The notes beneath the pieces are model-generated. The model was not told the DNA's origin and made no database searches. It saw nothing but the letters and a program-made list of their open reading frames with translations. The translations under genes were made by a program, and so were the position numbers. This document shows positions 15,262-31,328 of a stretch of DNA of 43,160 nt, one piece after another. The stretch comes from a virus (taxonomy: Duplodnaviria > Heunggongvirae > Uroviricota > Caudoviricetes). Positions within the stretch are counted from its first letter, which is position 1. Each line of letters begins with the position of its first letter. Location: positions 1 through 43,160 of the IMG/VR virus record IMGVR_UViG_2534681759_000012; one strand, given 5' to 3'.

Positions 15262-17427
15262 TTATTGAGGTGTCTCGGCTACTCCGCCGGAGGGGATTTG
15301 AACTTGACGCATAAGATTCGCGAAATCCATGCGTTGTGAATGAGTCTGGTCTGCATCTTTAAGAAGCAGCTCAGCGTTAGCACGAGCATCTTTGCTGCGC
15401 TGTTGCTGGAATTGACCTACGAGCTTGAGGTACTCACGCAGTTCTGCCTGCTTGTCGAGGTCCATATTGTTGAAGATTTCTGCAATCTTCGCGGCGTTGA
15501 GTTGGTTTTGTGCTTCAACCTTGGCAGCTTCAACCTGAATCTGCGCCTGTTGGTTCTCTGCCTTGAGCAATTCAGCCTGACCTTGCAGAAGGATACCCTG
15601 CGCCTGAATTTGCTCTGCTGATGGCTGCTGCGGCTGTTGTTGTGCCTGCTGCACCATCTCCATCTCTTCAGGTGTTTCTGGTTTCTTCAGCCCCATCATC
15701 ACCAGTTGCTTGTTCGCGTACTCTCGCATCATCTCGACGCCTTTACCGTCAAGCAGCGTGAAGTATTGCAGCATCAGCATCTGGAACTCTGGAGTACCTT
15801 GCGGAACCTTGGTGAGCAACTCCTGAATCTCTGCGCGGTTCTGTTCCTTCATACTCTGGAAGGATGGTCCGACGTCTGTATAGCACTCATAGCGACCGCG
15901 AATGTCGTTGAGTGTGACCACATTGCCGGACTGGTAATCGACAACTTGCGCATAGAGTTGAACGTCTTTCTCGCTTCCATCTTCGAGTGTCAGCGTTACA
16001 TGACGAGGAACGTCATAAATATCGTTGACCATTGAGGCATAAATCTCGCCATCACGTCGCATTGCGGTAGCCAGGTTATCCTGAAACACGTATGTCTCAA
16101 GGTCTGCCCGCATGTTCAGTTGATTGACGGTATCGAAAGCGACCTGAGAGTTTGCTGCCTGCGCATCCACGCCAAGACTAGCCACCTCTTTCACTGCGTT
16201 GGTGGCAGCCTCAAGCATATAAGCGTTGGATTGCGGCACTTCAGGGTTTTCCATGTAGGAGATTGGACCAATCGGCAGGTCGTTACCGTTTTCATCGGTC
16301 CTGTTCTGCAGATAGTACGGATAGTCATCATTTCCACCGTACATGTATTCGTAGCCTTCGATTTGCTCAGGGAAGAAGGTCGGTTTCTTCTTCGGTGAAC
16401 GAGCAACAATATCGGCGTTGAATGACATGATCATGTTACGAAGGCGTTGACCGTCTTTCGTCAGCCTTACCACTCCTTCGTAGCACTCCTTGTCACCAGC
16501 GAATGACCATTCGCCGTACACAGGAACGATTGGGATATGCTCTCCGGCTATCTTTTCTCGGTCTTTTAGTATCTGCGTGCAGGTGATGATCGACTTATAC
16601 ACACGCCGACGCTTGACCTTACGCTCTGCTACCTTAATGAATCCACGATTAGCCAGGTCGTCGATAACGTCTTTAATATCCTGCTGGTAATAGCTGACCG
16701 GCTCACCTGTCAGCGGGTCGCGGTAGATGAAGACTTTCTCCTTCTTCTCTTCTACCTCGTAATACTCAGCGACGTAGACGACATCATTCGATACCCACGG
16801 AAACAGCCATGTGTCGTTCGGATTCTGGAAAGATGGCAAGGAGTCCGGATCAATACCGTAATCCTCTGCGAACTCTTTCCAGCCATTGCGCGACAAGGCG
16901 TTAATCACCGTGCAGTGCTTAGCGTCGCTCTTATCCATCTGCTTGCTGTTTGCGTCCCATATGACGTGTGAGCAGGCTTCATGGATTGGCAGGCGTCGAA
17001 TTACCTGATTGTTGCTTGTTGGGTCGTTGTCTTCGTACTGTGTGACCAGACGCCATGCACCAACGCCGGACTCTATCTGCTCACGAACGCCAACGTTAAC
17101 GGCAATTTTTGCCGTGTTATGGCGCATATCAGTACGATACATCCCCATCAACACATCGGCAGCATCAGGATTAGCGCCGTCTTTTGGTCGAAAGAGAACG
17201 TCGATAGGATTCCGGCGCATCTCTGCGACCAGTTTCCTGACCACCGGGCGGACAACATCGAATTGTCCGCGATATTGCAGGGTGGTGTAGTTTGATAGCC
17301 AGTCATCCCATTGCGACACTCGGCTAAAATACAGGTCATTTGTCGCCTCGGTTCTGGCTTCATCGCTCGCCATCCAGTCTGCGTCAAACTTACACAGAAT
17401 GGAATTGAGTCTGTTTTCGTCGGCCAT
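15262..17427 (-). CDS. Portal protein (gp1-like)
   Basis: 721 aa (P22 portal is 725 aa) with Gln-rich C-terminal barrel region; immediately downstream of the large terminase. Confidence 0.85.
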
Positions 17428-18927
17428 TTAAGTTCTCCGTGCGATGGGCCTGATTGGGGCTGGTATCTTTTTCTCTTTTGGTTTTTTGATGTCGCGCATC
17501 ATTTTGGCGAAGCGGCGCATCATGTATGCATAGCGAACGGCTGAGAGAACGTCGTCGTTAAGCTTGACGATTTTCCCGTTTTCATCACGGTGATAGAGGC
17601 GGAACTCCTCAAAGAATGGCTCACAGGTGTTGAATACTTTGAAGCGACCATCGAGCATCATGTCGCGCAATTCAGTGATGCCAGGCTCCACAGCGTTACC
17701 GCCATCAGGCCATGTCGCATGCTCCTGCAACATCATAAAACCAGCGTCGGCATACTGCCCTTTGAGCTGCTCACCGCCGCCCTTCTCATGCTGGTTTCCG
17801 TCATGAGGCCATGCGGTTGGCACTTTATGCGCCCATGATTTAACAGCTCCCCACGCCTGAACGGCTGTCTTTTCTTTCGCCTTCCACACGCGTGAAACGT
17901 AGATTGTGTCTGCGTCCTTATCCCACCAAAGCTGAACCTGCGCCTGTGGGTGATCCCATCCGAAATCCATCCCGCCAATTACGTAGAAGTGATCAGGACA
18001 CTCGAACGGCTGACACTTAATAGTCTCTTCCGGTATCTGGAAGATTCGACCACTACCCATCGTAGGAATACCGCGAGCACGCGCCTCTCTCTCATGCTCG
18101 GGATAGGATGCGATGATTTGCTCTTTCTGCTCGTCGGTATAGTGCTCAGCGTCATAGATGGTCATGTTGACCACTTTCTGCGACTTGCTGGGATTCTTCA
18201 GGAACTTGGTAACAACGTCAGACATCCCCATCAGCGGGGTAAACGTCAGAATTGAGAATTGCCCGTATTTGTTGGTACGGGTAAGCCCTTCGCCATAAAT
18301 GCTGTATGGTGGCTCTTCGTCAAACCACACGCCGTGGATTGTGTCACCCTGCCAGCGAGCGCGGCCTTGCGAGTATGGTTTGAAGTAGCAGATTGAAATG
18401 CCATCCTCAACGCCATCGGCCGTGTGATGCTTAACCAGAAGATGATCAACAAGGTTCGGAAAGAAAGGAGACTTCTTCCAGCTAATGATGTCCTCTTTCG
18501 GTATTGAACCGTAGCCCGGCTCATCATTCTCTTCAATGCGACCGCACAGGATGCGTTGAGTCGTTTTGGTTACAGTCTCGTTTGTCTCGCCACCAATCCA
18601 AAAGACAACAGGCTCATAGAAACGCTTACCTTTCCACTCACCGCCATATTTACCATCAGCAGGATAGCCTTTTGTGCCCGGATAACGCCCGGTAAGGTGA
18701 AACGCGACTTCAGCAGCACCAGTAAATGACTTACCAAGCTGGTTACCAGCCATAAAACATCGCTCTGGATAGTCATGCCCGGCGTCGATGAACTCACGCT
18801 GTTTGCTGTATGGCGTAAATTCATATAGCAGGTGTGTGTTCCGGTAGTTCTCTTCTTCTTCGAGTAGCTCGAGCAACTCGATTTGCTCTTCGTCGCTCAG
18901 GTTATCAAGAATCGCGTCCAGTTCCAC
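17428..18927 (-). CDS. Terminase large subunit (gp2-like)
   Basis: 499 aa, identical in length to P22 gp2; ATPase/nuclease-type composition; follows the small terminase. Confidence 0.9.
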
Positions 18928-19399
18928 GGTTGAATAGCTCCTTGATACGAGAGCGTCGCTTATCGCGATCTCCCTTATCAGGTGTCACGTCTTCAACTTG
19001 CGACTGCTCTTTGAGGCCCAAATCACGGGCGATGATGTTAGCGTTGAGAAGGTCAGCGGCTGCGCCAGAGAATTTCTGGTCGTAGATGATGTCTTCCGCT
19101 CGTGATGTGACGTCAGAAAAACCTTCCATTGACCGGAAGGTTCCCCATGTTTGCCTGGTGATATCAAGGAAGGTACACAATCCTGAAATAGTCATGGCTC
19201 GCATCTTAGGGACATTAGCCTTAATTATTTCTCCCTGATATGAAAATACCTTACCCTCCCATAGCGGGTTATCATCAGCCCACTCGAAGTATTCACAACA
19301 AGCAGCCCACAGCGCCTCAGGCGATTCGAATTTAGGATTTCGCCCATGACTACTGCGGGCCTCCCAAAATCGGTTGCCCTTTGGTGCTGCCATATTCAT
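18905..19399 (-). CDS. Terminase small subunit (gp3-like)
   Basis: 164 aa; sequence ([37 protein letters not shown]...[24 protein letters not shown]) closely matches the P22 gp3 sequence I recall. Confidence 0.85.
19105..19126 (-). other. Candidate pac site inside the small terminase gene
   Basis: Minus-strand GAAGGTTTTTCTGACGTCACAT lies at the position of the P22 pac site (GAAGACTTATCTGAGGTCGTTA) within gene 3, about 14 of 22 identical. Confidence 0.3.
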
Positions 19400-20139: not shown

Positions 20140-20382
20140 TTAAATGATTTGCCAGTCTTCAGCCATCAGGTCGCCAATGGATGGAACCCATGTAGCAAGG
20201 CGGTTCTGTGAGTTTTTCAATACAAGCGTGTCATTGAAAGTTGGCTCGCCAACATATTCGCCAAAGCCATAACCCAACGCAGACGCTAATTTTTCCCCTT
20301 TCACGAGATAAACAAACTGGTCTTTCCCATTCCATCCTGCCCGCTGCAAACTTTTGCCCTGTTTTAACGCTTCCATGGCAAG
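20140..20382 (-). pseudogene. C-terminal fragment of IS-disrupted DUF2829 (Tad2-like) gene
   Basis: Frame stays open into the IS left end; the native part encodes ...LAMEALKQGKSLQRAGWNGKDQFVYL...ATWVPSIGDLMAEDWQII, a GW...DLLAEDW pattern I associate with DUF2829. Confidence 0.6.
20378..20382. repeat. Target-site duplication (GCAAG), left copy
   Basis: 5-bp direct repeat GCAAG immediately flanks both ends of the 1954-bp element (also at 22337..22341). Confidence 0.8.
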
Positions 20383-22329
<1,947 letters not shown>

Positions 22330-22336
22330 ATTGACA

Positions 22337-28847: not shown

Positions 28848-31328
28848 TCAGAATCCTCCTTTCTTCTTGGACTGCGGCTCCTCGCGTTCACGGCGGCGCA
28901 TTTCAGCAGACTGTTGGTCTGTGTCATAAATAGCGCCATTTGCCTGAATGCAATACACCGTGCCGGTATTGCCATGACGATTGAGACGAAGGATTAGTTC
29001 GGTTTCACCAGGTGGAACACTGTCATCAAAAGCACCTTCACGATGGATCCCCACCCAATAATCGCAATCCTGTTCAATCTGCCCTGTATCTCGTGAGTCA
29101 CTTGGTAATGGGCGTTTATTGGTTCGGCTTTCCAGTGCGCGGTTAAGCTGCGTCAGAAGCACAACAACGCAATCAAGCTCTTTGGCAAGGTTCTTCAGTC
29201 CTTTGGTGATCATGCCGTAAGCAAGGTCGTTGCGATCGGCCTTCTCAGCGGTCATTAGTGTCAGGTAATCGACCAGAATCATGCCAACACATCCTTTTTC
29301 TCGCTTGATTCGACGGCTTTCGCTGACGATTTGAGCCAGAGATAATCCCGGCGTGTCGTCGATGTAAAGCATGTCGATTTCACTCAAGCGATTGGCTGTT
29401 TCGATCGCCCTGTTGAAGTCACCATCGTAATCACCCTGATAGCCGTCATCGGCGTCATTTGTCGCCGGAAGGTAAAAAATATTCGGGTTAACACCAGACT
29501 TCTGCCCTACCAGTTTTTCCAGTATCTGGTCACCGGGCATTTCAAGGCTGAACATCAGAGCGGGCTTTTTCTCATGCACTGCGCAGTTGATTGCCATCTG
29601 GCTGTATAGCGTGGTGTTGTGGGTTAGAATGTATCCGTCAGTTGCATACAAATGTCTCTCGTGGGATACCATGATGCAAATGCACTCTTCACGTCCAATA
29701 TACTCAACCGACGTGATAACAGGCGCACTTGTTTTGATGCGTTTTGCAGTGAATTTTTGCTTCAGGCGTGGAGATTTTATGTGTGATAGAACCTCATCAG
29801 GCAACCTGATTGCGCAAATATGGGCATCCATACCTTTGCGCATTTCTCCCTTATAACTGAATTTCGGCTCCTGTTTGGTTGTCATACGACACACGCCACC
29901 AAGAGAATGCACCAGCCGCTTTACACCATCTGACAGGAACTTGCTTGCCGAGCTAAAGCGCAGGGCATTATTTCCTTCAACCCAACCATCGGTTTCAAGT
30001 AATCCGCATAGAACATCAATACGAGTTTGCTTATCAGCAGAAAAAATAATATCCGGGATAATTTTAATCTCTGACATCCGGCCGTAGATACCAAGCCGTT
30101 GCATAACCCGCGTAAGAGATAATTTGCGGCTAAACTTGTGAGATAGGGAGTAATCGCAGCCAGAAACATTTCTGACTTCAATATCGTCACCCACTTCAGA
30201 TCTTACTCGCTCAATGATGTATGGTTCCGTCATGCTGATTCGTGGCGTACCTGCAAGATTTCCATCGCCAAGTAACGCACCTAACAGCCATGGGCTAATC
30301 CCTAAATCAACAGGCAATCCGAAGTCACCGCTAATACCAGGAACATGAATGCGGCTTTGATAGCGAACGCATTCCATCATGTCCCGTAGGCGGCAGGTGT
30401 CTACAACATCAACGCCACCGGTAATACGGTTACTATGAATTTCCCACAAATGATCATCCGCGCAATCAACGGTTCTTCCGTCAGAGAACGTAACTCGGTA
30501 AATATCTCGCTCCCCTTGAGGAAAAACTCCAGACACGAATGATGGTTGTCCATCCACTGATGCTAGGGAATCTCCAACACATACGTCACGAAATGTTGTC
30601 CATGAACCATCAGCAAGCAAAATGCGTGAATTAAGCGGTTGCGCTTTCCCCATCTTAGGGCGAGCGCCAATGACAAACAGAGAGCCTTTCACCAGACCTT
30701 TCGGTGACAGCATCCTGTCCAGCGATGGGATCCCTGTGCTCATTCCTCGTTGTTCGCCTGACGGGTCAAATCGCTTCTCAAGGTCGCTAACCCAGTCTTC
30801 CATGACCTCACCAAATGAACGAAGGCCGCGACGCGATCCGGTTTTTGCATGGTCTGTCAGTTGCGTGAAAATCGACTGAATAGCTTCGTACTTCTGTGTT
30901 GCAGTCATTCCGTTGCGGGAATAGAGCAATTCCGTCGCTTCAGTCATGCGGTTGATGGCGTAGCGTTCCATTGCGGTTTCACGAACCTGCATTGCATAGG
31001 CAACGATGTTTGCTGCGCTTGGCGTGTTCTTTGCGATCTCAGCGATATAAGCAAAACCGCCAACAGACGCCGTTAACGATTTACGCTCCAGTTCATCGAA
31101 AAGCGTCAGGCCATCTACTGGCTTTTGCTCCCGGTGCATTCTGGTTATTTCTTCGAAAAGGATTTTGTGTGGTCGGCTGTAAAATGAGTCAGGCTTCAGC
31201 ATCGCCAGAACTTTCTGGACGCGCTCACTGCAGTCATCATCCAGAAGCAATCCACCAATCACCGCCTGCTCTGCCTCGATGCTATGGGGCGGCGCATAAA
31301 AATTATCGGTCATCGTGTTCACCCTCAC
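28848..31328 (-). CDS. Replicative DNA helicase (DnaB family) interrupted in-frame by an intein
   Basis: 826 aa; DnaB N-terminal domain (PHSIEAEQAVIGGLLLDD...), Walker A split as GARPKMGK / TTLYS by a 343-aa insertion, then DnaB motifs (LVDYLTLM, LLTQLNRALESR). Confidence 0.85.
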   Translation of the reverse strand: MRVNTMTDNFYAPPHSIEAEQAVIGGLLLDDDCSERVQKVLAMLKPDSFYSRPHKILFEEITRMHREQKPVDGLTLFDELERKSLTASVGGFAYIAEIAKNTPSAANIVAYAMQVRETAMERYAINRMTEATELLYSRNGMTATQKYEAIQSIFTQLTDHAKTGSRRGLRSFGEVMEDWVSDLEKRFDPSGEQRGMSTGIPSLDRMLSPKGLVKGSLFVIGARPKMGKAQPLNSRILLADGSWTTFRDVCVGDSLASVDGQPSFVSGVFPQGERDIYRVTFSDGRTVDCADDHLWEIHSNRITGGVDVVDTCRLRDMMECVRYQSRIHVPGISGDFGLPVDLGISPWLLGALLGDGNLAGTPRISMTEPYIIERVRSEVGDDIEVRNVSGCDYSLSHKFSRKLSLTRVMQRLGIYGRMSEIKIIPDIIFSADKQTRIDVLCGLLETDGWVEGNNALRFSSASKFLSDGVKRLVHSLGGVCRMTTKQEPKFSYKGEMRKGMDAHICAIRLPDEVLSHIKSPRLKQKFTAKRIKTSAPVITSVEYIGREECICIMVSHERHLYATDGYILTHNTTLYSQMAINCAVHEKKPALMFSLEMPGDQILEKLVGQKSGVNPNIFYLPATNDADDGYQGDYDGDFNRAIETANRLSEIDMLYIDDTPGLSLAQIVSESRRIKREKGCVGMILVDYLTLMTAEKADRNDLAYGMITKGLKNLAKELDCVVVLLTQLNRALESRTNKRPLPSDSRDTGQIEQDCDYWVGIHREGAFDDSVPPGETELILRLNRHGNTGTVYCIQANGAIYDTDQQSAEMRRREREEPQSKKKGGF
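29616..30644 (-). other. Intein with LAGLIDADG homing-endonuclease motifs inside the helicase P-loop
   Basis: Residues 229..571 of the helicase: starts with Ala (AQPLNSRILLADGSW...), ends ...YILTHN followed by Thr; two LAGLIDADG-like motifs (LGALLGDGNL and LCGLLETDGWVEG); removing it restores GARPKMGKTT. Confidence 0.75.

Follow-up and report, generated by a model that had tools for sequence, protein, structure and literature searches.

We conclude that a 22-bp segment within gene 3 of the window (the window being the whole 43,160-bp stretch of DNA that was analyzed) is very probably the P22-type pac site of a P22-like prophage, an unremarkable feature that is well understood. By analogy with P22, the packaging specificity of the site in this integrated prophage is probably the same as that of P22, or broadly overlaps it, rather than altered. 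The features by which a P22-type pac may be recognized computationally were all found: the site has the expected position in gene 3, conforms to the consensus, occurs in a single copy, is accompanied by the cognate packaging machinery, and is under selection at the level of the DNA. The window represents an integrated prophage, with the integrase gene starting at position 1 and, near the right end, a torI/xis-like region followed by a host gene for an MFS sugar transporter. The coordinates of the relevant features are collected in Table 1.

Table 1. Positions in the window of the pac-like segment, the packaging genes, and associated features
Feature	Position	Strand	Remarks
Gene 1, portal protein	15262..17427	minus	Pfam P22_portal, E = 1e-161
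Gene 2, large terminase (TerL; ATPase and nuclease)	17428..18927	minus	Pfam Terminase_6N and Terminase_6C; overlaps the end of gene 3
Gene 3, small terminase (TerS)	18905..19393	minus	162 aa; houses the pac-like site; Pfam GP3_package, E = 8.6e-31
Predicted series-initiation cut zone	19055..19175	.	About 120 bp, centered on the site; predicted from P22 only
Recombinant (mosaic) patch of gene 3	19090..19278	minus	Gene 3 nt 116-304, codons 39-102
Possible 3' extension of the constrained element	about 19100-19105	minus	Rest of codon 97 plus codon 98
pac-like 22-bp segment	19105..19126	minus	GAAGGTTTTTCTGACGTCACAT; gene 3 nt 268-289, codons 90-97
17-nt recognition core	19109..19125	minus	AAGGTTTTTCTGACGTC; pac positions 2-18
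IS21-family element	20383..22336	opposite to late operon	1954 bp; istA 20469-21491, istB 21488-22270; imperfect terminal inverted repeats

The P22 pac is reportedly a 22-bp sequence within gene 3, described by Wu et al. in 2002. The initial annotation had placed the segment at the equivalent position, and this assignment is borne out. The alignment with P22 gene 3 that it had proposed ran without gaps, the two segments coincided at the same nucleotides of both genes, and the window segment therefore lies at exactly the gene 3 location of the P22 pac annotated in GenBank (BK000583, misc_feature 4-25, GAAGATTTATCTGAAGTCGTTA). Over its full length, the small terminase is 82% identical to P22 gp3 (PDB 3P9A). 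One correction concerns the strand: gene 3 and the motif are both on the minus strand, and the segment as written in Table 1 is the reverse complement of the letters at its positions in the window. An 8-bp palindrome, TGACGTCA, is found on the minus strand at 19108-19115, inside the pac core, where the P22 counterpart reads TGAAGTCG; this palindrome may be a side effect of the Asp-Val-Thr codons.

The degree of raw identity to the P22 pac depends on the reference that is chosen. The figure of about 14 of 22 bases given in the initial annotation applies only to the variant carried by ST64T and UAB_Phi20 (GAAGACTTATCTGAGGTCGTTA), with which 14 of the 22 bases are shared; for the BK000583 site, the correct figure is 15/22. 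The seven differences from the latter are A5G, A9T, and A15C in the core, together with positions 19 to 22, which lie outside it. A bare count of 15/22 is no better than chance: sites with at least 15 of 22 matches to the P22 pac occurred three times in the window, compared with 2.8 times in shuffled sequences, and the identity count was for this reason dropped as a criterion. Similarly, the 22-bp segment is 68% identical to P22, compared with 64% for the surrounding diverged patch, and the identity of the 17-nt core (14/17; 82%) is suggestive only (binomial p = 0.09). The segment is real, but the basis on which it was first put forward, the identity count, is weak.

The site is nonrandom when it is judged by the functional motif, unlike when it is judged by a bare identity count. 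Using the packaging start points of P22 on the Salmonella chromosome, Maier et al. (PMC11226127, 2024) derived a pac and pseudo-pac pattern, AA[GC][AG][TC][AT][AT][ATC][TC][TC]T[GT][ACG][ACG][ACG]TC. The core fits this pattern at 17 of 17 positions and is the sole match to it in the 43-kb window when both strands are scanned, with 0.14 matches expected per window. We also trained a weight matrix on the P22 pac and the nine host pac-like sites on which the wild-type P22 enzyme acts in vivo (PMC11260489, 2024). The ten known functional sites scored between 17.5 and 23.6 bits on this matrix, the highest value being that of the P22 pac itself, and the core scored 24.9 bits; the runner-up in the window reached 13.6 bits. 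By both measures, the pac-type site is present in a single copy in the window. Chance occurrence was rejected on the grounds that the core is the sole motif match in the window and that synonymous positions are frozen in the two sets of homologues considered below.

The bases at which the core departs from P22 are all ones that wild-type P22 terminase tolerates, since A5G, A9T, and A15C are each present in host sites that this enzyme uses. Only 2 of 17 positions differ between the core and the purF site (AAGGTTTATCTGGCGTC), and 3 of 17 differ from site 6. The purF and minE sites boost P22-mediated plasmid transduction approximately 10,000-fold, only 10-fold under the native pac (PMC11260489). 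By our reading of the underlined bases in Table 1 of PMC11260489, 11 of the 12 bases that Wu et al. marked as important are retained; the twelfth carries A5G, a change shared with four of the nine host sites known to be functional. Close relatives of the window allele (those of Salmonella phage Emek and of four further loci) vary only outside the core or at positions where the pattern tolerates variation. Because the core satisfies every requirement of the experimental P22 pac consensus, the site most likely shares the pac specificity of P22, or would have one that broadly overlaps it.

These data allow the claim that headful packaging is initiated inside gene 3 with altered specificity to be divided. 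The first part is supported by the pac-type site in gene 3, the P22-type TerS, TerL, and portal, and the synonymous constraint; the second part is not upheld, given that the differences in the core are all tolerated by the P22 enzyme, that a site as close as purF is functional, and that positions 19 to 22 fall outside the core. Altered specificity nevertheless deserves consideration as the strongest of the alternatives, although we regard it as unlikely. It would hold that a diverged patch of TerS and the seven base differences have coevolved, so that the terminases of P22 and of the window are not interchangeable. Gene 3 is mosaic: the patch is 64.6% identical to P22 gene 3, the flanks on either side (nt 1-115 and nt 305-489) are virtually identical to it (approximately 100%), and the patch has the pac segment at its 3' end. 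The TerS protein differs from that of P22 at 29 amino acids, all of them within the patch (29 of 64 residues), and the patch that bears these substitutions is the one that bears the site. Moreover, all four of positions 19 to 22 of the 22-bp P22 site differ, and the patch behaves as an exchangeable module, the 3' half of which is found with the same type of site in phage Emek; it is compatible with a module that combines a recognition surface with the target of that surface. However, P22 terminase tolerates every core difference in vivo, and on the functional matrix the site scores higher than the pac of P22 itself. Specificity is unlikely to reside in positions 19 to 22, since these vary freely within the allele group (ACAT, ACAG, ACAA, ACCA, and ACTA), and the site and the patch are physically linked, so their co-occurrence is no evidence of coevolution.

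The DNA obeys the rules of P22, with a full match to the pattern, while the resident TerS carries 29 substitutions relative to P22 gp3. A shift of specificity by way of these substitutions is possible, though nothing in the DNA calls for one; if the 29 residues read DNA, specificity could differ in a way that is invisible to a P22-derived pattern. To our knowledge, no in vitro assay has reproduced the specific binding of gp3 to pac. In the literature searched, no mapping of virion ends was found for IME10, E212, Sf101, or related phages, and in the E212 paper headful packaging is inferred from the phylogeny of TerL only. Of the IMG/VR contigs inspected that end near gene 3, none ends at the site; most of these contigs are derived from prophages, and their ends are hence uninformative.

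Gene 3 of the window has 99.4 to 99.8% nucleotide identity to gene 3 of the E. coli phages IME10, E212, HZ41, Louie, Dewey, and Bas106, and the patch is common to these phages and EC.P3. Of 5,426 complete E. coli genomes, 146 have the patch; this prophage type is a common one. Three of the 152 places with a window-type patch in the E. coli genome collection are on plasmids, which may represent phage-plasmids or integrated copies. Two further small terminases were found in contigs of metagenome-assembled genomes, one 100% identical to that of the window on a contig binned as Cellvibrionaceae (L085, JAUVQU010000080.1) and one 71% identical to it on a contig binned as "Bacillota" (L107, JAEWTL010000052.1); both are probably misbinned contigs of enterobacterial phages.

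Selection on the site was assessed in two sets of homologues. Set 1 comprised 61 homologous loci from bacterial assemblies sampled at one genome per species, which gave 43 nonredundant, codon-aligned genes; set 2, which was independent of set 1, comprised 41 IMG/VR representatives at less than 90% nucleotide identity, with GC contents of 39 to 61%, that were recovered via two distant queries. In almost every gene of set 1, the best matrix match within the gene lay at the homologous position, and among 157 six-codon intervals, identical synonymous codons were most strongly in excess at codons 90 to 95, which correspond to the core. Codon 95, which encodes Val, Ile, or Leu, ended in C in all 43 genes of set 1, compared with 34% elsewhere in the same genes, and in 41/41 members of set 2. 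Where codon 90 encoded Glu, Gln, or Lys, it ended in A in 40/40 cases in set 1 (45% elsewhere in the same genes) and in 38/38 in set 2. Phe92 was encoded by TTT in 30 of 31 cases in set 1, compared with 31% elsewhere in the same genes, and in all 28 cases in set 2. The eight best intervals for synonymous excess in set 2 all fell inside codons 88 to 100. The near-frozen state of the synonymous positions at codons 90 to 95 indicates selection on the DNA itself. Distant homologues keep RAAGRTTT...RTC regardless of the local amino acids, as is expected of a cis-acting packaging signal. Within the window allele, 80 IMG/VR loci yielded 49 DNA variants with 41 variable sites, none of which fell in nt 253-290; taken alone, the invariance of the core across these 49 distinct variants is too weak to be significant (about p = 0.15).

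The constraint possibly reaches two codons beyond the classical 22-bp pac. Thr97 was encoded by ACG in 26 of 32 homologues and Arg98 by CGA in 24 of 37, each codon being used at approximately 19% elsewhere in these genes, and an excess of synonymous identity at codons 97 and 98 was also seen in set 2. The family consensus at these codons is ACG CGA; the window carries TCA CGA.

A second alternative, which we consider very unlikely, is that the resemblance to the P22 pac is a by-product of homologous coding sequence, with the real signal located elsewhere or with packaging starts that lack precision, like those of Sf6 and ES18. The amino acid motif E-G/D-F/L-S-D/E-V/I is conserved and dictates part of the DNA motif, the bare 15/22 count is at the level of chance, the segment is about as similar to P22 as is the patch around it, and initiation is imprecise in some P22-like phages such as Sf6. 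However, the synonymous positions are frozen beyond the needs of the protein in two independent sets, with the peak at codons 90 to 95, and no other site in the window comes near the motif. In addition, Sf6 and HK620, which initiate imprecisely, have unrelated TerS proteins, whereas both TerS and TerL of the window are of the P22 type. An Sf6-like diffuse pac was rejected because the TerS proteins of Sf6 and HK620 are unrelated to that of the window, and a cos site was rejected on the evidence that tells against the other alternatives (motif uniqueness, synonymous constraint, and P22-type TerS and TerL).

The packaging machinery that would act on a P22-type pac is present in full: TerS, TerL, portal, scaffold, and coat proteins of the P22 type are all encoded. 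The TerL protein and P22 gp2 share 93% identity and are virtually the same in their first 317 residues, a stretch that takes in the TerS-binding N terminus. In P22, the portal serves as the headful sensor. Based on the P22 paradigm, an oligomer of gp3 would recognize the core within its own gene, on concatemeric or still-integrated DNA, and gp2, recruited to the core by TerS, would cut within roughly 60 bp on either side. The DNA would then be pumped into the procapsid in the direction from gene 3 to gene 2 to the portal gene, that is, toward lower window coordinates, along a path predicted to run through genes 2, 1, 8, and 5 and then on to the tailspike and integrase genes. A sequence-independent headful cut would close the first chromosome and open the next. 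In P22, the cuts fall in a 120-bp region around pac and packaging proceeds 5' to 3' on the motif strand (PMC11226127; PMC11260489).

The closest known counterpart of the window site is the P22 pac, with which it shares the gene family, the location at codons 90 to 97, the strand relative to the gene, and a TerL partner that is 93% identical. Unlike the P22 site, it lies in a TerS patch that has diverged by 29 substitutions, and it carries seven base differences; its host is Escherichia rather than Salmonella, and it is known from sequence alone. The pac of ST64T and UAB_Phi20 occupies the same position and is likewise a naturally occurring variant of the P22 pac, and for UAB_Phi20 a submolar pac fragment has been shown; however, this variant is only 2 bases from P22 and resides in a P22-type TerS (REDLSEVVT), whereas the window allele is of the MEGFSDVTS type. 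The Salmonella pseudo-pac sites, such as purF, satisfy the same pattern as the window core (PMC11226127; PMC11260489). Unlike the window site, which has the cognate position within a terminase gene and shows synonymous constraint across the family, these are fortuitous host sequences that give rise to generalized transduction.

Sf6 and HK620 are also P22-like podoviruses, of Shigella and E. coli, respectively, that package by the headful mechanism, and the layout of the window prophage is similar to that of HK620, with int, attP, and torI arranged alike. In BLASTP comparisons of the window TerS with Sf6 gp1 and with HK620 gp3, no similarity was detectable (E = 3.7), and an identity of 12% is quoted in the literature. 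The alignment with Sf6 and HK620 that the initial annotation had also proposed is impossible, these small terminases being unrelated to that of the window. Unlike the window, Sf6 and HK620 have no alignable 22-bp site at the equivalent position, and the window TerS does not belong to the Sf6 gp1 family of small terminases that defines the Sf6/HK620 type.

Two other genes of the prophage were compared with HK620. A DnaB-like replicative helicase gene (28848-31328, minus strand) encodes 826 aa, with an N-terminal domain at residues 13 to 117 and a C-terminal domain at residues 572 to 792; between them lies an insert of approximately 450 residues (about 118 to 571) with a weak LAGLIDADG match (residues 439 to 485), which looks like an intein by its sequence. 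The helicase gene of HK620 is 1,437 nt in length. Between the integrase and the tailspike genes, an open reading frame of 441 aa (1567-2892, plus strand) has no Pfam match; at the corresponding place HK620 has an O-antigen polymerase-like gene, and by this analogy the product may be a surface-polysaccharide modification (lysogenic conversion) protein.

In the late operon, an IS21-family element stands between the lysis cassette and gene 3, approximately 1 kb upstream of the latter. The element interrupts a Tad2-like gene (Thoeris anti-defense 2; DUF2829), the 3' part of which is the open reading frame at 20140-20412 on the minus strand, and an insertion at this position was absent from all of the complete E. 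coli genomes searched. With the element included, the prophage is estimated at approximately 42 kb, nearer to the P22 headful of approximately 43.4 kb given in the literature. The element may be polar and lower the expression of the terminase genes, and the site is possibly inactive in this genome. The last alternative, to which we give almost no credence, is that the site is a relic, the insertion having made the prophage defective and the sequence being kept because the insertion is recent; the position and opposite orientation of the element, inside the Tad2-like gene, and its absence from other complete genomes would fit such a view, but every morphogenetic and packaging open reading frame examined is full length, the gene 3 allele is that of isolated plaque-forming phages, and the argument bears on the current activity of the site and not on its identity.

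The GP3_package family ranges from enterobacterial P22-like phages to prophages of Alphaproteobacteria and other phyla. It can be envisioned, as a tentative proposal that we regard as possible but somewhat doubtful, that members of this TerS family may hold the packaging signal at one fixed place within their own gene, as a bipartite element composed of RAAGRTTT, approximately 6 variable nucleotides, and RTC, together with the downstream ACG-CGA, and that this element is kept by synonymous selection. The variable center might then set classes of specificity; TCTGA is the center in both the window (IME10) allele and that of P22, so that E. coli and Salmonella phages of these two types could each use the sites of the other for packaging and transduction. 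That family-wide synonymous constraint marks the site is the one mildly new point of this study, and it offers a simple and purely computational means to locate pac sites in uncharacterized members of the GP3_package family.

In conclusion, the identification of a P22-type pac in this prophage leaves the current understanding of packaging unchanged and extends a textbook case. The site and its orientation fix the predicted start and direction of headful packaging in this prophage. Delayed excision has been reported for P22. If excision is delayed here as well, in situ (lateral) transduction would mobilize the host DNA that flanks the prophage beyond the integrase gene, to the left of the window. 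In addition, if the specificity of P22 is shared, the published P22 pseudo-pac pattern could be applied directly to E. coli strains that carry this type of prophage, to predict their hot spots of transduction.
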